Of a stretch of 33,955 nt of DNA, positions 5,367 through 32,049 are shown in pieces. A program made the translations under genes and the position numbers. Source of the DNA: a virus (taxonomy: Duplodnaviria; Heunggongvirae; Uroviricota; Caudoviricetes); the IMG/VR virus record IMGVR_UViG_2778261417_000008, positions 1-33,955 of that record; one strand, 5' to 3'. Every line of letters starts with the position of its first letter. The stretch's first letter is position 1. A model generated the notes under the pieces. It worked only from the letters and a program-made list of their open reading frames with translations. It had not been told where the DNA came from and ran no database searches.

Positions 5367-6251
5367 TTATGGATTGCGCTTATGGATCTGGAAGCCGATT
5401 TTCCTGCCGTTTTTTATCTCTGAAAATTTAAGATATTCAATAGCTTCCAAATCTTTCATGGCTTTTCTGATAACGCTATTTTGCACGCTAACGGATGATT
5501 TGAGATTAAGCCTCGCTCTAAGGCGCTCAATGCTGACAGGTGCCGGGTTGGCGGGTAGAGCCTCAAAGAATGTATACAGTACCTTGGCCGTCTCTTTGCG
5601 CCCTAGTTTATCCAGCATCTTCAGCTTCAGGATTCGCTTATAGTCAACATAGTAAAGTTCAGATAGCTGTTTCTGCGGCTGGATCTCGATAACATCAAGC
5701 TCGGTATTCAGGCTGCTATATGCCAACAAGTTGACGTTAATGTTATTGAGATGACCTTTTGCCGCCGGGAAGCGGAATTTGACAACTGTCTGCTGAATGC
5801 GTGTCAGAGAGTCATCAATACTTTTACGGAACGCCTTTGAAAGGCGCTTACGTGGATAGCCGCATCGATCGGCAAACTCGGAGAATGGCAGGGTGATTAT
5901 GCCGTCATCATCAGGTGCGTAGTCAAACAACGCGGAGGTTATGCCCACCCACACCTTAAAATCAGTATCCATATCCAGGCGTGGACCATGAATTTCAATT
6001 CCCTCATAGCCTTCCTGCTCAACAATTTTGAGGCTTGATAGTTCTTCGGTTGCGTTCGTTGTGTTTGTAGTAACTGACGATCCGCGACGTAGCGCCACAT
6101 TGGTAGATTTTAAGGTTGGCACAAACACACCTAAGCGCAACAAAGCGATGGGTTGTATAGTGCTGTTGTTATTGGGCTTCAGGCTGTGGATTTCTCCTGT
6201 ATTTCCTGCAACTTCTTCAACGCTAAGGAAGCCTTTACTTTCTTCCGGCAT
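5367..6251 (-). CDS. repA: RepA iteron-binding replication initiator (P1 RepA family, divergent)
   Basis: Shares blocks with P1 RepA (…QPIALLRLGVFVP…, …GPRLDMDTDFKVWVGI…). Likely start is the ATG at 6251 (GGAG 7 nt upstream); the ORF track extends to 6287. Confidence 0.85.
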   Translation of the reverse strand: MPEESKGFLSVEEVAGNTGEIHSLKPNNNSTIQPIALLRLGVFVPTLKSTNVALRRGSSVTTNTTNATEELSSLKIVEQEGYEGIEIHGPRLDMDTDFKVWVGITSALFDYAPDDDGIITLPFSEFADRCGYPRKRLSKAFRKSIDDSLTRIQQTVVKFRFPAAKGHLNNINVNLLAYSSLNTELDVIEIQPQKQLSELYYVDYKRILKLKMLDKLGRKETAKVLYTFFEALPANPAPVSIERLRARLNLKSSVSVQNSVIRKAMKDLEAIEYLKFSEIKNGRKIGFQIHKRNP

Positions 6252-6330
6252 CGCGGTTTCTCCATGTGTGGCGCGGCCTGACGTCAATTTGGATGGCTGT
6301 TATCAACAGCTGTGAATATTCAGACTCTAA

Positions 6331-6433
6331 AATCGCTTACAGTCAATGTTTCTGTCGCGTATAGTCAACAATAAATCGCGTGCAGTCAACAATAAATCGT
6401 GCACAGTCAACATAAAATCGCGTATAGTCAATG
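6331..6433. repeat. incC-like origin iterons: five direct repeats at about 21-bp spacing upstream of repA
   Basis: AATCGCGTATAGTCAAC-like units at 6331-6348, 6354-6371, 6374-6392, 6395-6413, 6416-6433. Confidence 0.85.
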
Positions 6434-17104: not shown

Positions 17105-20100
17105 CTATATTTTTCCGCCTACGCCTTTAAACTTCTCAATAAACGAGACGATTTTCTGGAAAACTGCCTGTTTTTTCGTTTTATATTGCGGATTTAACGG
17201 ACTAAGTTTTGGTAATGTTTCGTTTAATTCTGTGCCATTTTCGGTGGCATATTCGCGTTTTAAAGACGTGCGAATATAGCGTTTTGCTGCATCTTCATTG
17301 AGATTTTCTTCTTTTATCAATGCTTCTGCTTCACGTTGCTGTTCGCGTTGAGCAAACGTAAAGAATGCGTCAATGATGCTGGCTTTGTCCGGTAAATCAT
17401 CCAGGTTCGTTTGCTGAATAAAATCGACCACCAGGCCCTCTTTAGCACGGTTTCCCAGGCTTGAACGAATTAAGCGTTTGACCTCTTCGATCATTTCGCC
17501 CTTGCCTTTATTTTGTCTGTTGTGTTCGAAAATCAGTCCAAGGATATAATCCAGGTTTATTTCCTGAGACTTCAGCAAATCGACCTCAAAAACTACGTCA
17601 TCCCAGTCAGTGGTTGATTTCTCTTTTTTCTCAGCTTCTTTCTCACGGCGCTGCCAGTCGCGAATATCGTTATAGGCAGAACGATAATCCTGAATCTTGC
17701 GATCAGCAGGGAGACGAATTGTTTGCAATTCAGCGAACTTTTCATCATCCACATAATGTTCTGCTTTGAATTTTTCTACCGCAACAGGATCGCTAAGATC
17801 GATTTGTTGCAGGGCTTTTAGCGTGGCAAATTCATCATAGTTTTGCAGGATGTTCTCGGCACGCAGGTATTCGCCAAACAGTTTAACGAAGTCTTTCTTC
17901 TCTTTTTCACTTTCAATACTGGTAGGGTCAGGGAACCGTTGTTCCAGTTCTGAAACTACTGTCATGAAGCCGCGTTTAGCTTCACCTGTAGCAGCATCAG
18001 TAAAGCCTTCCATATACTCTGTATAACTCTTTTCTAACACCACATTTTTGGTGTTTTTGTCACCAAACAGCGTTATGGCATCAATAGTTGAGCGTTCCAG
18101 ATCCCGGAAAGTGACGATATTACCGAAGGTTTTAGTGGCGTCATAAATGCGGTTGGTGCGGGAAAATGCCTGCATCAGGCCGTGATAACGTAAGTTTTTA
18201 TCGACGAATAGCGTGTTCAATGTTGGAGCATCGAAGCCGGTTAAGAACATCCCCACGACAATTAGCAGATCGATATCCTGATTTTTAACCCGCTGGGCTA
18301 AATCACGATAGTAGTTCTGAAAACCGTTACTGTCGGTGCTAAAGTTAGTTTTAAAATGGCTGTTATATTCACGAATTGCAGCGTCCAGAAACTCTTTAGC
18401 ACTGCTGTCCATTGCGCTGGTATCAAAAGTTTCATCGGAAATTTCACCAATGGCATTTTGTTCTTCATTGGCGGCAAAGGAGAAGATTGTCGCAATACGC
18501 AGCGGTTTATAGGTAGCCGATTTATTAGCGGCTTCTTCTTGTAACCGTTTAAACGTCGCATAATAGGCTTTCGCGGCATCCACGCTGCTCACTGCCAACA
18601 TAGCATTAAAACCTTTTGAGCCAGGGAAGGTACGGTGGGTTTTCTGGCGGAAATTATTCAGAATATATTGCGTGATTTCCTGAATACGCATGGGATGAAG
18701 AAACGCCTGCTGATTTTCAGCCGCACTCAGTTTTTTCTCGTCAGTTTCTGTCTCTAAAGACTTAAACTGTGGCCGCACATCGTTGTAGTCCACCTTGAAT
18801 TTGAGCACTTTTTCGTCACGAATCGCATCGGTAATTACATACGAATGCAATTCACGACCAAATACGCTGGCGGTTGTTTCTGAGCCTAAGGCGTTTTCCG
18901 GGAAAATAGGGGTGCCGGTAAAACCAAACTGATAATAGCGTTTGAATTTCTTCTTCAGGTTTTTCTGCGCTTCTCCAAACTGGCTGCGGTGGCATTCATC
19001 AAATATAAACACCACTTGCTGATTATATACAGGCAGATCGCTTTCTGCTTTCATCAGGTTATTGAGTTTCTGAATAGTAGTGACGATAATTTTGTTATCG
19101 TCCTTATCCAGATTTCGTTTAAGGCCTGCGGTATTTTCCGAGCCGTTGACGCTGTCTGGCGAAAAACGCTGATATTCCTTCATGGTCTGGTAATCGAGGT
19201 CTTTCCTGTCGACCACAAAGAAGACTTTATCAATAAAGTCCAGCTCTGTTGCCAGACGCGCGGCTTTAAAGCTGGTGAGGGTTTTACCAGAACCGGTAGT
19301 GTGCCAGATATACCCACCGCTTTCCGGTTTTGACCAGTTCTTCGCTGTAAAGGAACTCTTAATTTTCCACAGAATGCGCTCGGTGGCGGCAATCTGGTAC
19401 GGTCGCATTACCAGTAGTGTCTGACTGCTGTCAAAAACGCTGTAGTTCACCAGAACATTAAGCAGAGTATGTTTCTGGAAAAAGGTGGCGGTAAAGTCTT
19501 TGAGGTCTTTAATCAGCGTATTGTCTGATTTCGCCCAGTTCATGGTGAAGTCAAAACTGTTTTTATCGCGCTTTGTCGTGTTGGCAAAATAACGGGTATC
19601 AGTGCCGTTGGAAATGACGAACAGCTGCAGATACTTAAACAGGGAATTTTCGCTGTTAAAACTCTCTTTACTGTAACGATGTATCTGGTTGAAAGCCTCA
19701 CGAATCGCCACGCCGCGTTTTTTCAGTTCGATTTGTACCAGCGGTAAGCCATTAACCAGGATAGTTACGTCATAACGGTTAGCGTGAGAACCCGCCTGTT
19801 CAAACTGCTGGATAATCTGCACCTTATTGCGCATGAGATTCTTTTTATCTATCAAATAGATGTTCTCAAGACGCTCGTCATCAAAAATAAAGTCGCAAAT
19901 ATAGTCGATATGGATTTTACGGGTCTTATCCAGAATGCCATCGCTCGGGTTATCCAGATACTGCTCCGTGAAACGCCGCCACTCGCTGTCATTAAACACC
20001 ACACCATTGAGGTTCTGAAGCTGTTCCCGAACATTGGCCAGCATCGCCGACTGTGATTTTACGGATATAAATTCATAGCCCTGATTCCGTAGGTCCTGTA

Positions 20101-20221
20101 TCAGTTCGCGTTCCAGGTCCGATTCGCTCTGGTAGCTGTCGCCTGTTGGCTCAGCTTTGATGTACTTATCAAGAACGATAAAGTTATTGGATTCAGCAAT
20201 GGTGTGTGTCTGATGAGTCAT
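17105..20221 (-). CDS. hsdR: Type I restriction enzyme R subunit (HsdR), type IC / EcoR124-like
   Basis: 1038 aa; helicase motifs ([22 protein letters not shown]); length matches EcoR124 HsdR as I recall it. Confidence 0.9.
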
Positions 20222-20342: not shown

Positions 20343-21557
20343 TTAATTACTGACAGTTTCAGGTTTCGGGAAACTGAACAGTAAATCACGATAGTACTCG
20401 TATTGTTTCTGGCGCAACTCGATTTCACGCGGAAGACCTTCGGTGATGGAGTTAGTCAGTGTGTCGAATTTGTCGAGTATTTCGACAATTCGTTGTTGTT
20501 CATTGATGTTAGGAACCGGAATTTTAAATGAAAATAATTTTTTACTGTCAATAGAAGCTACGGACCCTCCTGTCTTTTTCGCTGCTCGCAGAATATCACT
20601 CCCCCTAGACCCAATCATATGATAAATATATTTAACCAAGATGTTTTCATGAGGAATGACTGCTTTCATATCTTGATTGAGCGTAGCAGGTACTTTTATT
20701 AATGCACTTGGTAATACTTTATCCAATATGCTTGAGCGAACAACGATTGCAATCGAGTTTGCTGGAATCAGTTTTGTTGACGATTGTAGAACAGCCTCCT
20801 CAGTTATATAGTCTTCCGAAGAGTCTACAAGTGTTCGGCCCATATCTTTCGGGGAAATCCATGGAATGCTTCCATTTTCCCAAAATTCAATTTTATTTTT
20901 TGATGGTGTCCCTCCCCCATACCATTTTCCGATCTCTCCCAAAGTCTTCCACTCAACCTCACCCTCTTTAAAACTCAACAACTGGTCGCGATAGTAGTTG
21001 TACTGTTTTTTACGCATGTTAAGCTCAGCGGTAAGCTCAGCGGTAAGTGCAGTAAATTTATCCAGAATCCGAACGATTTCAGACTGGATGGCAAGGGATT
21101 TTTCCGGATTATCCGGGCAGGGGATTGGGATTTTTTTTTGAGAATAATTACTAATCCATTGGCGTTTATGGTCTCCCTCTGCGAATTCACTTGGTAATGT
21201 ATTGAGCCAATAGTAAACATATTTCAGTAAGGTTTTATTATCATCACATGATGTAACCATTTTCATGGCCGATGATTTTGCCTTAAAGTCAAAATCCACC
21301 CATTTATTAGCGGTGGTGAAATCATCAAAAATTATTACAGGTGCCTTTGATGCCTGATAAATACCATGAGTCTCATTTGTGTATCCAAGAATAAATGTTT
21401 TTCCGGCAGTAAGAACCGGTATGGTATATGTGTCGTGATAATCTTTTGCTTTTACCAAATACTTTGTTGGCTGTTCATATTTGGTTATTTCCCCCAATGG
21501 CAACCACTCAACTTCAACCCCATCCAGCAATTTTTCCAGATAACTCATCTCGCTCAT
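20343..21557 (-). CDS. hsdS: Type I restriction-modification specificity subunit (HsdS), EcoR124-like
   Basis: 404 aa with two target-recognition domains around a central conserved region containing TAELTAEL; 4-nt overlap with hsdM. Confidence 0.9.
21021..21044 (-). repeat. Tandem 12-bp repeat (2 copies, encoding TAEL-TAEL) in the hsdS central spacer region
   Basis: aagctcagcggt aagctcagcggt on the plus strand; the next 12 nt (21045-21056) are a degenerate third unit. Confidence 0.85.
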
Positions 21558-23116
21558 TTCTGCACCTCGCAGCCTTCAATTTCAGCCACAATCGCATCAA
21601 TATCTTTGCGCAACTGGTCGATTTTGCTGACCGTGGTTTTCAGCTCAGCATTCAGCTCAGCAATATCGATAATTTCGCGGTTATCTTTCGCTTCCACATA
21701 GCTGCTCACCGACAGGTTATAGTCATTAGCAACAACGGTCTCAAACGCGACAGATTTCGCCAGATGAGCAACATCTTCCTTGCTGGCAAATACCTGCATA
21801 ATCTGTTCGATATGGGCATCGGTCAGGATATTGTTGTTAGTCTCTTTTTTGAACAGTTCGCTGGCGTCAATAAACTGAACGTTGGTATCCGTTTTATGTT
21901 TGGACAGAACCAGAATGTTTACTGCAATGGTGGTGCCAAAGAACAGGTTCGGTGCCAGTGAAATTACGGTTTCGACATAGTTATTGTCAATCAGATACTG
22001 ACGGATTTTCTGCTCCGCGCCGCCACGGTAAAAAATACCCGGGAAGCAAACAATCGCAGCACGACCTTTGGCAGAAAGATAGTTCAGCGCATGTAATACA
22101 AACGCAAAGTCAGCTTTGGATTTGGGGGCCAGAACGCCAGCCGGGGCAAAACGTTCATCGTTAATCAGCGTCGGGTCATCGCTGCCAATCCATTTCACCG
22201 AATACGGCGGGTTAGAAACGATGGCATCAAACGGTTTTTCATCTCTGAAGTGTGGCTCAGTCAGTGTATTACCCAGCTTGATATCAAACTTGTCGTAGTT
22301 GATGTTGTGCAAAAACATGTTCATACGTGCCAGGTTATAGGTTGTATGGTTGATTTCCTGACCAAAAAAGCCTTCTTCGATGATATGGTCATCAAACTGT
22401 TTTTTAGCCTGCAACAACAGCGAACCGGATCCTGCTGCCGGGTCGTAGATTTTGTTAACGTGGGTCTGCCCGTGCATAGCCAGTTGTGCAATCAGCTTAG
22501 AGACGTGTTGCGGTGTAAAGAACTCGCCGCCTGACTTACCGGCATTCGCCGCATAGTTAGAAATCAGGAACTCATAGGCGTCACCGAACAGGTCAATCTG
22601 ATGTTCGTTGAAGTCACCAAGTTTTAACCCTTCAACCCCTTTCAGAACCGCAGCCAGGCGGGCATTTTTATCTTTAACGGTGTTACCCAGGCGGTTACTG
22701 GTGGTATCGAAATCAGCAAACAAACCTTTGATGTCAGCTTCTGAAGGATAACCGTAAGCAGAACTTTCGATAGCAACGAAGATGCTGTTTAAATCTGCAT
22801 TCAGTCTGTCATTAGTATTTGCTTTCGCAGCTACGTTGCAGAAAAGCTGACTGGGGTAGATGAAGTAGCCTTTAGTTTTGATGGCATCGTCTTTAATGTC
22901 ATCAGTAATTACGCTGTCATCCAGTTTCGCATAACAGATACTGTCATCACCGGCTTCAATATAACTGGAAAAATTTTCGCTGATAAAACGGTAGAAAAGT
23001 GCGCCCAGAACGTATTGCTTAAAATCCCATCCATCGACCGAACCCCTGACATCGTTAGCAATTTGCCAGATTTGACGATGAAGCTCTGCACGTTGTTGAA
23101 TACTTGTCATTTTCAT
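21554..23116 (-). CDS. hsdM: Type I restriction-modification methyltransferase subunit (HsdM), EcoR124-like
   Basis: 520 aa; N6-adenine methyltransferase NPPY-type motif (VSNPPYS) and AdoMet-binding region. Confidence 0.9.
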
Positions 23117-23292: not shown

Positions 23293-23514
23293 ATGCAATC
23301 CATTAACTTCCGTACCGCGCGCGGCAACCTTTCTGAAGTGCTCAACAATGTTGAGGCCGGGGAAGAGGTTGAAATCACCCGCAGAGGCCGTGAGCCAGCA
23401 GTAATTGTCAGCAAGGCTACTTTCGAAGCCTACAAAAAAGCGGCGCTGGATGCTGAATTTGCATCCCTGTTTGACACCCTGGACTCCACCAACAAGGAAC
23501 TGGTTAACCGATAA
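23293..23514 (+). CDS. phd: Phd antitoxin
   Basis: 73-aa translation matches P1 Phd from memory (MQSINFRTARGNLSEVLNNVEAGEEVEITRRGREPAVIV…). Confidence 0.93.
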   Translation: MQSINFRTARGNLSEVLNNVEAGEEVEITRRGREPAVIVSKATFEAYKKAALDAEFASLFDTLDSTNKELVNR

Positions 23515-23894
23515 TGAGGCATATATCACCGGAAGAACTTATTGCGCTTCATGATGCGAATATAAACTGCTACGGCGGCTTGCCGGGAATGTCAGATCCG
23601 GGTAGGGCAGAGGCCATTATCGGGAGAGTTCAGGCCAGAGTTGCCTACGAAGAGATCACCGACCTTTTCGAAGTCTCCGCCACCTACCTGGTGGCTACAG
23701 CGAGAGGGCATATATTCAATGATGCCAATAAGCGTACCGCGCTAAACAGCGCGCTGCTATTTCTACGCCGTAACGGGGTGCAGGTATTTGATTCACCTGA
23801 ACTGGCAGACCTTACTGTAGGCGCTGCGACTGGCGAGATATCTGTATCTTCTGTCGCCGACACGTTACGTAGATTGTATGGTTCTGCGGAGTAG
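23514..23894 (+). CDS. doc: Doc toxin (Fic-fold kinase)
   Basis: 126 aa; overlaps the phd stop; matches P1 Doc from memory. Confidence 0.93.
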
Positions 23895-24105: not shown

Positions 24106-25149
24106 GTGAAAGCCGTAATTACTCCCTTTGTACAAAAAGAGCTTGGCGTCGCCACATTCAAAGTGGATCAGGAAGTCAGAAAGCTGGTGGAGGCTGGCCG
24201 TAAATTTATTATGGAGCCGGTGCCGCGTGAGTTAATCGAGCACATGGACGACGGCCTCGTTGTTTCCGAGCAAACTATGGCAACAAATGAGGCGTTGCAG
24301 CCGTTTTTTAACAGCGATGAACTGTTTCGCCGTATTGGTGGAATTGACGCGCTGGTGGCGTGGTTGCGCAGGAAAGAGGGGCAATGCCAGGCCGCAGATC
24401 GTAGCTGGTGTGACAACCATATTGTCCACGCAGAACGAGACAATAGCGCGGTGTTGTTGTGCTGGCATCACGATAACCATTACCGGATGCGTGGTTTTAA
24501 TGAGCTGAAAGAAACGCTGCATAATAATCGCGTTAACTGGATACTGGATGTCGCCCGTCAGGAAATGGGGCTTTCAGATGGCCATGATTTAAGTATTCAG
24601 GAACTGTGCTGGTGGGCTTTCATGCGCAACATGATGCACCTGATGCCGGAAGAAGTTTGCCGTATATCAATAAATAAGATGAAAGCCGCAACGCAGGATA
24701 GCGGACCTCTGAAAGAGGCGGATATTCGCCCGTATGACGATCGCGCTACAGCATATGTTCAGATGATGGAAGAACGCGCCGCGCCGATGCGTGCAAAAGT
24801 ATGCCCTGTGGATGTTGACTCCGACCCTGGCATGGCGCATTTCAAAATACCAAAACTGCAATCGCTAAAATTACCTGAGTACATGGACTTTGTTGCTTCC
24901 CGTCCATGCTGTGGGTGTGGAGCGGCGGGAGCTGGCGCTCACATTACGCCTTATATCGTTCGTCATAGTCGATTATGCGCGCATGACATTTACGCAATTC
25001 CTCTGTGCCAGTCATGCCAGCGTGATATTGAGCGTGACCGCGATAATTGGGAGAAGACGCACGGTAGGCTGGCGATGCATCAACGATTGTTCTTTGATTA
25101 CGCGCTTGGAGTCGGCGCTATCACAAGTCACTCGTCGAGCGTTAGATAA
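24106..25149 (+). CDS. Hypothetical phage protein with Cys/His-rich C-terminal motif (possible zinc-binding or HNH-like)
   Basis: 347 aa; CWHHDNHY and [12 protein letters not shown]…C.H…CQSCQ clusters. Confidence 0.5.
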
Positions 25150-25237: not shown

Positions 25238-25435
25238 ATGTTACTTAACTGGCAGGGACGCCACTTCATGGAAATAAATCACTCACGAATAACATCGTAC
25301 GAGATTGCGGATTACATGATCCGCACTAAATCTCTTCTATCAGCGAAAGAACTCGCAGCAATTCTTGAAAAGGAATACCCGCATCTGGATGTCGATAAGC
25401 GCGATGTTTATCTGCGCTTACGAACGAAAGCGTGA
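25238..25435 (+). CDS. Putative terminase small-subunit-like N-terminal segment (65-aa ORF)
   Basis: Helix-turn-helix-like small ORF upstream of the large terminase; overlaps the next ORF in a different frame. Confidence 0.35.
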
Positions 25436-25820
25436 AAATAACTGGTCAGTGCTGGAAGCAGCTGAATTCATCGAGGCGCATGGCGGAAAAGTGCCGCCCC
25501 TGATGCTGGAGCAAATCAAAGCCGATCTGCGTGCTCCTAAGACCAATACCGATGATGAGGAAAGGCAAACAGCCGTCGGTGGCCCTTCTCTTGAAGATCT
25601 GGACAAAGTTGCGCGAGAACGGGCCGCCAACCGCCGCGCCGATGCCGCATTGTGGATTGAGCAGCGTAGGGAAGAAATCGCCGATATCGTTGATACAGGC
25701 GGTTATGGAGATGTTGATACTGAAGGTGTATCAAACGACCCATGGCTGGAACAAGACCTGGACGAAGACGAGGAGGAAGACGAAGAAGTTACCCGCAAGC
25801 TATACGGGGATGATGATTAA
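25365..25820 (+). CDS. Putative terminase small-subunit-like C-terminal segment with acidic tail
   Basis: Acidic tail (…[11 protein letters not shown]…); stop overlaps the start of the large terminase (ATGATTAATGG). True start may be the GTG at 25458. Confidence 0.4.
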
Positions 25821-27304
25821 TGGCCAGAAGTTGCGTAACGGATCCACGTTGGCGCGAGCTGGTGGCGCTATATCGTTATGACTGGATTGCTGCCGCTGAT
25901 GTTTTGTTCGGCAAAACACCTACCTGGCAGCAGGATCTGATTATTGAGTCTGTGCAGGAACAGGGTAGCAAGACATCTGTTTCGTCTGGTCACGGTACCG
26001 GGAAATCAGACATGACTTCTATCATGATCATGTTGTTCATAATCATGTATCCCGGTGCCCGCGCCATTATCGTTGCGAACAAAATTCAGCAGGTAATGAC
26101 CGGTATATTCAAGTACATCAAGATAAACTGGGCTACTGCCACCAGCCGTTTTCCATGGCTTGCTGATTATTTTGTTCTGACAGAAACCGCTTTCTATGAG
26201 GTTACTGGTAAAGGTGTATGGACTGTAGTACCGAAGGGCTTTCGTCTGGGAAGTGAAGAAGCTCTCGCCGGTGAACACGCAGATCATCTTCTGTATATTA
26301 TCGATGAAGCCTCCGGTGTCAGTGATAGAGCTTTCGGTATCATCACCGGTGCTCTTACCGGACAGGATAACCGCATCTTATTGCTGTCACAGCCTACACG
26401 CCCAAGCGGCTATTTCTACGATACACACCATAAACTGGCCAAGCGTCCTGGTAACCCTGATGGCGTTTATACGGCGATCACGCTTAACAGTGAGGAATCA
26501 CCGTTGGTAACGCCAGCATTTATCAAAATGAAGCTGGCGGAGTACGGCGGGCGTGATAACCCTATGTACATGATTAAGGTACGCGGCCTATTCCCTAAAT
26601 CACAGGATGGCTTCCTTCTTGGACGTGATGAGGTTGAACGTGCAACGCGGCGGAAAGTCAAGATTGCCAAAGGATGGGGCTGGCTTGCATGTGTGGACGT
26701 TGCTGGTGGTACGGGACGGGATAAGTCCGTTATCAATATCATGATGGTGTCCGGCCAGCGAAATAAACGCCGTGTAATCAACTATCGAATGCTGGAATAC
26801 ACAGACGTTACAGAAACGCAGCTTGCCGCCAAAATTTTCGCAGAATGTAATCCTGAGCGATTCCCAAATATCACCATAGCGATAGACGGCGATGGCCTGG
26901 GTAAAGCAACGGCGGATCTGATGTACGAGTATTATGGTATTACCGTACAGCGTATACGCTGGGGTAAAAAGATGCATAGCCGTGAAGATAAGAGCCTGTA
27001 CTTTGATAAACGTGCTTATGCCAACGTTCAAGCCGCAGAGGCCGTAAAATCTGGTCGTATGAGACTGGATAAGGGTAATGAAACTATTGAGGAAGCGTCG
27101 AAAATCCCTGTAGGGATTAACTCCGCAGGTCAATGGAAGGTGATGAGTAAGGAGGATATGAAGAAAAAACTCAACCTGCACTCACCAGACCATTGGGATA
27201 CATATTGTTTCGCTATGCTGGCGGATTATGTTCCCCAGGATGAAGTGCTTAGCGTCGAAGACGAAGCGCAGGTTGATGAAGCTCTGGCATGGCTTAATGA
27301 ATGA
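25820..27304 (+). CDS. Terminase large subunit (PacB-like), 494 aa
   Basis: Walker A SGHGTGKS and Walker [12 protein letters not shown]; position just upstream of the immunity regions as for P1 pacB. Confidence 0.7.
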
Positions 27305-27643: not shown

Positions 27644-27865
27644 ATGGCTACTATCCCTACCCCAACTCATCCTGAATTTATCTGGCGCTTTTACTCCTGC
27701 CAAAAACGTCACTATCACTTCGTTATTGCACCGACAGAAGATGAGGCCCGCTCTCAGCTTCCTGACGCCCCATGTATTTTCTCTGCCCGTTTTTCCACTG
27801 ATTCACGCAATTCTCTCAGTTACTGGTGCCTCCCTGTTAACGCTTCTGCTCAGGAGGGACTATGA
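27644..27865 (+). CDS. icd: Icd (interference with cell division), 73 aa, translationally coupled to ant
   Basis: ATG at 27644 with AAGGAGG upstream; stop overlaps the ant start (ATGA). Confidence 0.6.
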   Translation: MATIPTPTHPEFIWRFYSCQKRHYHFVIAPTEDEARSQLPDAPCIFSARFSTDSRNSLSYWCLPVNASAQEGL

Positions 27866-28980
27866 GAACGTCATTAGTCACCCGTGAAGAGATGATCGAG
27901 GCAATTGAACAGCACACTGCCTGTATCAGTACCAGGGATATACCAGGCGTTATTGCCAACTACTTCATGATCACCAAACAACTTTACCGGAGAAAGGACA
28001 AGAACGCGGTTCACCGTATCCTGTTGTCTGATATCCGCGAATACCTGCTCGAACAGGGTCATCTGAATTACGCAACCGCCGCAGCCGAAGCACGCAAGGA
28101 GGCACACAGAATGAAAGCAACTAACGTTAAATCAGAAAAAATTCATGCACCTTCAGTTCAAGAATCGGAGCTGGTGGTTGTTCAGAATCAGTCTGATGAA
28201 ATTCCCGTTCTGGAATGGCAGGGAGTGCGTGTAGTGACAACCGAGACTCTTGCTAGAGGGTATGGGACAGAAACAATCCGTATTCGCCAAAATCATCATG
28301 AGAACAAAGTACGCTTTGTTGAAGGGAAGCACTTTTTCAAAGTTGAAGGAGAATCATTGCGCGAGTTGAAGCACAGAGTAGCTTTAAACTACTCTGTAAA
28401 AATTGCTCGCAATGTTCGCTCACTCACCCTCTGGACAGAACGCGGCGCAGCCCGCCACGCTAAAATGCTCGAAACCGATCAGGCATGGGCATTCTTTGAA
28501 AAACTGGAAGACAGCTACTTCCGACAAAAAGAACAGCAACCGATCGCAATCCCCCAGACGCTTCCTGAAGCCCTACGCCTGGCTGCCGAACTGGCTGAAC
28601 AAAAGCAACTTCTGGAACAGAAAGCCCACCAGCTAAATCAGCAGCTGGTGGCCGCCGCTCCTAAAGTCGATTTTGCCGACCGGGTATCAGTAGCTAAAGG
28701 GATCCTGATTGGGAATTTTGCAAAGGTTGTTGGACTTAAACAAAACGCGCTGTTTGTCTGGTTACGGGAGAACGGCATCCTGATAGCGTCCGGTGGACGT
28801 AAAAATGTGCCGTTCCAGCAGTACATCAACGCGGGGTATTTCACGGTGAAAGAAGTGGTGCTGGATGATGAAGATGGCTACCAGATACGGTTGACGCCTC
28901 AATTAACGGGTAAAGGCCAGCAGTGGTTGACGCGTAAACTGCTCGATGCTGGCTTGTTAAAACCGGTGGCGGCTGAATAA
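27862..28980 (+). CDS. ant: Antirepressor Ant (Ant1, 372 aa; an in-frame internal start near codon 84 would give Ant2)
   Basis: ORF6N/Bro-N-like N-terminal region and KilA-C/ANT-type C-terminal domain; sizes fit the reported 42 and 32 kDa P1 Ant1/Ant2. Confidence 0.7.
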   Translation: MRTSLVTREEMIEAIEQHTACISTRDIPGVIANYFMITKQLYRRKDKNAVHRILLSDIREYLLEQGHLNYATAAAEARKEAHRMKATNVKSEKIHAPSVQESELVVVQNQSDEIPVLEWQGVRVVTTETLARGYGTETIRIRQNHHENKVRFVEGKHFFKVEGESLRELKHRVALNYSVKIARNVRSLTLWTERGAARHAKMLETDQAWAFFEKLEDSYFRQKEQQPIAIPQTLPEALRLAAELAEQKQLLEQKAHQLNQQLVAAAPKVDFADRVSVAKGILIGNFAKVVGLKQNALFVWLRENGILIASGGRKNVPFQQYINAGYFTVKEVVLDDEDGYQIRLTPQLTGKGQQWLTRKLLDAGLLKPVAAE

Positions 28981-29012: not shown

Positions 29013-29864
29013 TTATTGCGCGCTTTCGGGGTTGTCGTTTACTGGCTGCCCCTTCTTGGTTTTACGGCTGCGCGTAACTGATGCGGCTGACTTAACCTTT
29101 TTCTCTTCGCGAGTGATGGCAATTTGTTTTTTTACATTTTCAATATCTGCCAGGCGATATATTTTTGCTTGCGGCCAGCGGTCGCAGATGATCGGTTCTA
29201 TGGAGTCATAAAGGCTAAATTTTGCTTTTTCGAATTCACCGTTGATGATAATTCCATCACGGAGAGTTTCATCGCAGATAAACACGCCACACAGTGGCAC
29301 ATGGTAACTAACTGATTTACCATCATTGTAGTTAGGGCTACTGGAAATGTAGTGGACGCGCAGCATTGTTTCGCTAAAGCCGTGTACGCGCATACGGAAT
29401 TTTTCATCCTCCGGGTACTGCTTCATTAGCTCTTTTGTTGCTTCCAGGTTCTCTATGTATTTCGCACTGTGCTCATTGATCCCCGCGCTTTTTTGGATGC
29501 GAATGTCCTTATCAATCAGATGAATAATGCGGCCAGCGGTCATGTTGACGCTGTTCACAGCTTCTGTCTGATAAGTTGTAACCTTACGCACACCGCGAAG
29601 GATGTTAGGCACTGGATATAAAATAGTCTTTGGGATATTGAGGTCTGGGTACTGTTCCAGTTCCCGCGCCATTAAAGTCCATTTATCAATTTCAGCCTGA
29701 ATGCTGTCAGTTTCTTTGAACGGTAGAACGACAACCGGGCGTACAGGACGACCGTCGCTGGCTGTATCAACGTGTTGGGCGCGTGCAACAGCTTTTTTTA
29801 GAAAGAGATCCCTGAAGCTGACGAACTCCTGGTACAGTTGTTCGCCGTAGACATAATTTATCAT
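29013..29864 (-). CDS. c1: C1 repressor of lysogeny (283 aa)
   Basis: Translation MINYVYGEQLYQEFVSFRDLFLKKAVARAQHVD… matches P1 C1 from memory. Confidence 0.95.
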   Translation of the reverse strand: MINYVYGEQLYQEFVSFRDLFLKKAVARAQHVDTASDGRPVRPVVVLPFKETDSIQAEIDKWTLMARELEQYPDLNIPKTILYPVPNILRGVRKVTTYQTEAVNSVNMTAGRIIHLIDKDIRIQKSAGINEHSAKYIENLEATKELMKQYPEDEKFRMRVHGFSETMLRVHYISSSPNYNDGKSVSYHVPLCGVFICDETLRDGIIINGEFEKAKFSLYDSIEPIICDRWPQAKIYRLADIENVKKQIAITREEKKVKSAASVTRSRKTKKGQPVNDNPESAQ

Positions 29865-31017: not shown

Positions 31018-32049
31018 ATGTCCAATTTACTGACCGTACACCAAAATTTGCCTGCATTACCGGTCGATGCAACGAGTGATGAGGTTCGCAAGAACCTGAT
31101 GGACATGTTCAGGGATCGCCAGGCGTTTTCTGAGCATACCTGGAAAATGCTTCTGTCCGTTTGCCGGTCGTGGGCGGCATGGTGCAAGTTGAATAACCGG
31201 AAATGGTTTCCCGCAGAACCTGAAGATGTTCGCGATTATCTTCTATATCTTCAGGCGCGCGGTCTGGCAGTAAAAACTATCCAGCAACATTTGGGCCAGC
31301 TAAACATGCTTCATCGTCGGTCCGGGCTGCCACGACCAAGTGACAGCAATGCTGTTTCACTGGTCATGCGACGGATCCGAAAAGAAAACGTTGATGCCGG
31401 TGAGCGTGCAAAACAGGCGCTGGCGTTCGAACGCACTGATTTCGACCTGGTTCGTTCACTCATGGAAAATAGTGAGCGCTGCCAGGATATACGTAATCTG
31501 GCATTTCTGGGGATTGCTTATAACACCCTGTTACGTATAGCCGAAATTTCCAGGATCAGGGTTAAAGATATCTCACGTACTGACGGTGGGAGAATGTTAA
31601 TCCATATTGGCAGAACGAAAACGCTGGTTAGCACCGCTGGTGTAGAGAAGGCACTTAGCCTAGGGGTAACTAAACTGGTTGAGCGATGGATTTCTGTCTC
31701 TGGTGTAGCTGATGATCCGAATAACTACCTGTTTTGCCGCGTCAGAAAAAATGGTGTTGCCGCGCCATCATCCACCAGCCAGCTATCAACTCGCGCCCTG
31801 GAAGGGATTTTTGAAGCAACTCATCGATTGATTTACGGCGCTAAGGATGACTCTGGTCAGAGATACCTGGCCTGGTCTGGACACAGTGCCCGTGTCGGAG
31901 CCGCGCGAGATATGGCCCGCGCCGGAGTTTCAATACCGGAGATCATGCAAGCTGGTGGCTGGACCAACGTAAATATTGTCATGAACTATATCCGTAACCT
32001 GGATAGTGAAACAGGGGCAATGGTGCGCCTGCTGGAAGATGGCGATTAG
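31018..32049 (+). CDS. cre: Cre tyrosine site-specific recombinase (343 aa)
   Basis: Translation matches Cre (MSNLLTVHQNLPALPVDATSDEVRKNLMDMFRDRQAFSEHTWKMLLSVCRSWAAWCKL…), with catalytic R-H-R-Y region at the C-terminus. Confidence 0.98.
   Translation: MSNLLTVHQNLPALPVDATSDEVRKNLMDMFRDRQAFSEHTWKMLLSVCRSWAAWCKLNNRKWFPAEPEDVRDYLLYLQARGLAVKTIQQHLGQLNMLHRRSGLPRPSDSNAVSLVMRRIRKENVDAGERAKQALAFERTDFDLVRSLMENSERCQDIRNLAFLGIAYNTLLRIAEISRIRVKDISRTDGGRMLIHIGRTKTLVSTAGVEKALSLGVTKLVERWISVSGVADDPNNYLFCRVRKNGVAAPSSTSQLSTRALEGIFEATHRLIYGAKDDSGQRYLAWSGHSARVGAARDMARAGVSIPEIMQAGGWTNVNIVMNYIRNLDSETGAMVRLLEDGD

Follow-up and report, generated by a model that had tools for sequence, protein, structure and literature searches.

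R124 is the conjugative plasmid of the classical EcoR124 work, and the enzymes that bear its name are the closest described relatives of the restriction-modification system reported here. EcoR124I and EcoR124II (formerly EcoR124/3) share the same subunits and half-sites and differ at a 12-bp unit of hsdS encoding the tetrapeptide TAEL: two units define EcoR124I, which recognizes GAA-N6-RTCG, and three define EcoR124II, which recognizes GAA-N7-RTCG (PMC3874165). EcoR124II derives from EcoR124I by a change at this repeat that is attributed to unequal crossing-over, and altering the number of units in hybrids changed specificity as predicted (PMC3874165). [quoted passage not shown] Reversible switching between EcoR124 and EcoR124/3 has been seen experimentally for the R124 hsdS, according to the primary papers as they are cited in PMC3874165.

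Further reports concur and extend the principle to the LEAT, SEAL and TSEL repeats of other type IC systems (PMC7383803, PMC10030836, PMC6789123), and the tetrapeptide repeat is named as a characteristic of type IC (PMC10030836). EcoDXXI, EcoPrrI, other type IC HsdS proteins and NgoAV have the same architecture, in which the spacer length is set by tandem tetrapeptides within the central conserved region. EcoDXXI and EcoPrrI have three TAEL units (PMC3874165), and NgoAV has LEAT units together with an additional frameshift. The locus described here belongs with these systems by its repeat; however, the target-recognition domains of EcoDXXI, EcoPrrI and NgoAV are unlike its own, and its closest counterpart is EcoR124I.

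The hsd Locus and Its Relation to EcoR124I

The window, i.e., the whole stretch of 33,955 bases that was analysed, carries three hsd genes:

17105-20221, minus strand: hsdR, 1038 aa, full-length match (residues 1-1038) to EcoR124I HsdR (PDB 2W00_A)
20343-21557, minus strand: hsdS, 404 aa, Pfam Methylase_S, 403/404 residues identical to EcoR124I HsdS (PDB 7BST_A)
21554-23116, minus strand: hsdM, 520 aa, 518/520 residues identical to EcoR124I HsdM (PDB 7BST_D)

The gene order is that of EcoR124I, in which hsdM overlaps hsdS and hsdR stands apart: hsdM lies upstream of hsdS and overlaps its start by 4 bp, and hsdR lies downstream of hsdS beyond a gap of 121 bp. Both the hsdM and hsdR reading frames are uninterrupted. 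EcoR124I (PDB 7BST, 2W00) also shares with the window the length of HsdS (404 aa), the two TAEL units and both target-recognition domains, the identity to 7BST_A extending over residues 1-404 with both domains included. The differences from the reference proteins amount to two in HsdM (D243N and I376V, against 7BST_D), one substitution in HsdR (F247C, in the ~970 residues compared with 2W00) and one in HsdS. The latter concerns residue 258 (window 20784-20786), which is Q here and H in both PDB 7BST and the UniRef EcoR124I/II entry (P0003), Q258H being the sole HsdS difference from either. Of 60 natural alleles with this target-recognition domain 2, 58 have Q258, and H258 is confined to the reference entry. 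Since Q258 is the natural majority, the window hsdS represents the natural consensus form; the H258 of the reference may be a variant that arose in a laboratory clone or an error of early sequencing.

Judged by its sequence, the hsdS gene is that of EcoR124I itself, beyond a merely EcoR124I-like gene. The near-identity of HsdS, the intact HsdM and HsdR, and a TAEL repeat of two units in the conserved region together assign the locus, at the level of sequence, to the type IC system EcoR124I.

A P1-like Phage-Plasmid as the Carrier

The classical carrier of EcoR124I is plasmid R124, whereas the window comes from a P1-like (Punavirus) phage-plasmid in which the hsd operon adjoins phd/doc. In addition to parA/parB and phd, the window carries the following features:

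5367-6287, minus strand: Rep3-type replication initiator gene
6355-6431: 21-bp tandem repeat, 3.7 copies of TCGCGTACAGTCAACAATAAA, just upstream of the Rep3-type initiator gene
23514-23894: doc
24106-25149: pdcB (DUF968)
25820-27304: pacB
27862-28980: ant (antirepressor)
29013-29864: c1
31018-32049: cre

The 21-bp array probably represents the iterons of the plasmid replicon. The closest phage, vB_EcoM-673R5, matches the window at 97.6% identity over 95% coverage and, together with many plasmids of ~95-150 kb, falls within a range of 95-97% coverage and ~97-98% identity. The hsdS gene of vB_EcoM-673R5 differs from that of the window in having three units and different domains, and its central region measures 208 bases against 196 in the window. 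At 25405-25420, where the junction shows an overlap of 16 bp, the window is without ~1.13 kb of vB_EcoM-673R5 (L005, 8955-10086). In that phage, this segment takes in the 3′ terminus of lpa along with most of pacA (annotated there as Pac1/Pac2). Both the P1 packaging site and PacA may accordingly be missing from the element, which, as far as the sequence tells, may be packaging-defective.

The Tandem Repeat in hsdS

The 12-bp sequence AAGCTCAGCGGT is present twice in identical form (21021-21032 and 21033-21044, read on the plus strand), in the plus-strand context CATGTT AAGCTCAGCGGT AAGCTCAGCGGT AAGTGCAGTAAA TTT. Two features are distinguished:

21021-21044, minus strand: two perfect 12-bp units, coding strand ACCGCTGAGCTT twice, encoding TAEL-TAEL (HsdS residues 172-179)
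21045-21056, minus strand: flanking 12 bp, AAGTGCAGTAAA, encoding FTAL, previously read as a "degenerate third unit"

Tandem Repeats Finder reports the repeat at 21020-21047, with a period of 12, 2.3 copies, 100% matches and a score of 56. This result and the translation (codons 172-179) agree with the sequence-only reading, which had described two perfect 12-bp copies encoding TAEL-TAEL. The degenerate third unit that had been added to them is poorly supported: the flanking 12 bp match the unit at just 6 of 12 bases, a level without significance by itself, and are not counted by the program. With FTAL as its product and a count of 2.3 copies for the array, this segment was dropped as a genuine third copy. 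The perfect run at lag 12 consists of 16 matches, for a chance expectation of ~8e-6 per 33,955 bases, and is the longest in the window at lags 4-60, tied only by the 21-bp putative iterons. Just two other runs of at least 12 matches occur at these lags in the window, namely these iterons and a duplication in hsdM.

The hsdM duplication, a second perfect 12-bp tandem duplication, lies in the C-terminal region of the gene (21639-21662, minus strand) and encodes AELN-AELK. Its coding strand reads GCTGAGCTGAAT GCTGAGCTGAAA, with a core, GCTGAGCT, that is common to the hsdS unit. It shows no length variation in 60 of 60 sampled E. coli records and, being constant in length there, was ruled out as a co-varying partner of the hsdS repeat, to whose variable copy number it provides a control.

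Position of the Repeat Within HsdS

For a conservation profile, the window HsdS was aligned with 119 full-length homologues, whose identity to it reaches 85-99% at residues ~141-205 and ~351-404 and falls to 52-77% in two intervening blocks, which correspond to the target-recognition domains. The resulting architecture is as follows:

20346-20507, minus strand: distal C-terminal conserved region, partner helix (aa ~351-404; 119-homologue profile)
20508-20942, minus strand: target-recognition domain 2 (aa ~206-350), RTCG half-site predicted by EcoR124I identity; carries Q258
20943-21137, minus strand: central conserved region of HsdS (aa ~141-205; 119-homologue profile)
21138-21497, minus strand: target-recognition domain 1 (aa ~21-140), GAA half-site predicted by EcoR124I identity and the literature (PMC3874165)

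The two domains reassort: domain 1 is common to 74 of the homologues and domain 2 to 59, frequently one without the other. [quoted passage not shown] A repeat lying outside the spacer-determining region would have spoken against its proposed role; it is found centrally in the conserved block. When the central block is aligned with the C-terminal block, they show 44% identity and a single 4-residue gap located exactly at the TAEL repeat, so that with two units the helix falls one unit short of its partner, in keeping with a comment that the "optimum" appears to be three units (PMC3874165).

Copy-Number Variation in E. coli Type IC Systems

The 144-bp central region was found in 1,368 records, from 1,277 of the 5,426 complete E. 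coli genomes (~24%). Units were counted in a systematic sample of 60 of these 1,368 records by comparing the subject span with the query span. Two-unit alleles (32 records) and three-unit alleles (24 records) make up most of the sample, which also includes one allele each with one, five and eight units and one interrupted allele. A synthetic three-unit query likewise returned many perfect three-unit matches in complete E. coli genomes. A protein-level tally, in which 116 of 120 sequences had two units, is biased because protein hits share words with the two-unit query; it was set aside, and the DNA span survey was used instead.

Some of these alleles differ by very little else than the repeat. 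An allele with one unit (P0084) and an allele with two (P0059) show no mismatch apart from one unit, as do an allele with three units (P0103) and an allele with two (P0074); a further pair (P0038 and P0033) differs by one unit and two substitutions. Such pairs indicate that the gain or loss of a unit is a recurrent and recent natural event. The counts of one, five and eight units were each borne out by the sequence of the locus itself. The one-unit form occurs in an otherwise intact system, that of E. coli HKUOPY1 (L004, 3383-4564), in which hsdM, hsdS and hsdR are all intact. The largest arrays are found in disrupted loci. Eight perfect TAEL units are present in E. coli 33-6 (L002, 4001-4216), whose hsdS and hsdM are both broken by IS1 and IS3. 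In E. coli 2018-02-2CC, which has five units (L003, 4001-4180), IS3 has truncated hsdS and hsdM is lost; five units are shared by ~15 related pig or pork isolates. These IS-disrupted loci suggest that the TAEL array expands once selection on the enzyme is lost.

As regards the allele of the window, the exact HsdS protein is present on 108 public contigs, and the identical 1215-bp hsdS is present in six complete E. coli records, i.e., three chromosomes of strain ST540 and three plasmids. Two units are found in all six of these records and in both PLSDB plasmids with this allele. A three-unit allele with the same domain pair was found neither in PLSDB nor in the complete E. coli genomes, and exact one-, three- and four-unit derivatives are absent from 15 billion proteins, in an exact look-up that misses alleles carrying further substitutions. 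Copy-number variation between otherwise identical alleles is thus seen at the level of the family, and the window allele has been sampled in its two-unit form only.

Spacer Length, Specificity Switching and Alternative Readings

Observed here are the repeat and its place in the conserved region, together with the near-identity to EcoR124I and the copy-number polymorphism of the family. We infer the N6 specificity and the switching ability of the element from the identity to EcoR124I and from the classical work on R124. In the proposed mechanism, TAEL-TAEL would sit within the first of the two antiparallel helices separating the target-recognition domains, and the length of this helix would determine how far apart the domains lie and how they are rotated against each other, and thereby how long the non-specific spacer is. 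The site predicted for the window enzyme, which has two units, is GAA-N6-RTCG. One further unit, acquired through unequal crossing-over or through replication slippage between identical units, would add about one helical turn and confer the EcoR124II specificity, GAA-N7-RTCG, while losing the extra unit would return the enzyme to N6. Very probably, then, the phage-plasmid carries the EcoR124I hsdS in its natural consensus form, with the TAEL units acting as a spacer ruler set at N6 and the gain of a unit leading to N7. The sequence-only reading had already taken two copies to predict an EcoR124I-like spacing, which the 403/404 identity of HsdS and the published experiments on the same gene corroborate, and had linked two versus three repeats to N6 versus N7 through unequal crossing-over. 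Since both the link between copy number and spacer and the crossing-over are already published (PMC3874165), this interpretation is supported, yet not new.

Other readings of the repeat differ in how much they would change. A coincidence of chance or composition, devoid of functional meaning, has the shortness of the array as its single argument and is vanishingly improbable: ~8e-6 perfect runs of this kind are expected per window, the TAEL repeat is kept in hundreds of homologues, and its units lie in frame within a conserved helix whose role is backed by experimental literature (PMC3874165). On the strength of the expectation, of the conservation among homologues and of this literature, a chance origin was ruled out. 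A fixed two-unit helix spacer, kept by selection, would imply that switching does not occur at a relevant rate in this lineage and that the differences within the family are rare and ancient. The exact domain pair is indeed always associated with two units, in the six complete records, the two plasmids and the 108 contigs; the search of 15 billion proteins returned no exact one-, three- or four-unit derivative; and two units offer a short substrate for mispairing (24 bp). However, reversible switching between EcoR124 and EcoR124/3 is reported for the same gene in the primary papers to which PMC3874165 refers, the allele pairs with no mismatch and one unit between them point to recent natural events, and the two- and three-copy forms are almost equally common across the family, which makes a fixed spacer unlikely.

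A different question is how units are gained or lost. RecA-independent slipped-strand mispairing during replication, in place of unequal crossing-over between sister or homologous molecules, deserves somewhat more credence than a fixed spacer, though we hold it to be the less probable route: slippage classically acts on perfect tandem repeats of short length, and the perfect five- and eight-unit expansions in IS-disrupted loci resemble a stepwise or runaway expansion after relaxed selection. Against this, the literature credits unequal crossing-over (PMC3874165), and a pair of 12-bp units is much less prone to slipping than tracts of mono- to tetranucleotides; the sequence itself favours neither process. 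The spacer-ruler reading accommodates either route. It could also be carried further, into the highly speculative proposal that the repeat serves P1-like phage-plasmids as a population-level generator of diversity, with subpopulations of lysogens flipping between N6 and N7, and perhaps N5 through the one-unit form. If this were true, such flipping would afford herd protection against phage, the phage-plasmid's own DNA would be modified differently among subpopulations, and the five- and eight-unit alleles would represent free expansion of the array once selection on the enzyme is lost.

Annotation and Significance

The repeat is a known device, found here in its archetypal gene. Spacer-length switching in type I enzymes has its classical example in the TAEL repeat, and the locus therefore adds nothing new on the mechanism. 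The new information is modest and concerns populations: E. coli type IC systems have two or three units at almost the same frequency, intact systems can have a one-unit allele, expansions to five and eight units are found where IS elements have inactivated the locus, and the exact EcoR124I enzyme is carried by P1-like phage-plasmids. In practical terms, the element can be annotated as an EcoR124I carrier with the predicted site given above, a label that helps to foresee barriers to DNA transfer and to select hosts for cloning or transformation.

Database names for this protein vary. UniProt names the HsdS protein "EcoR124I/EcoR124II specificity subunit", and the two-unit, 404-aa HsdS and its partners in PDB 7BST (chains A and D) and 4BE7 are labelled "EcoR124II" by the depositors or UniProt. 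Two units mean EcoR124I by the definition used in the literature, and the "EcoR124II" label attached to a two-unit HsdS could mislead automatic annotation.
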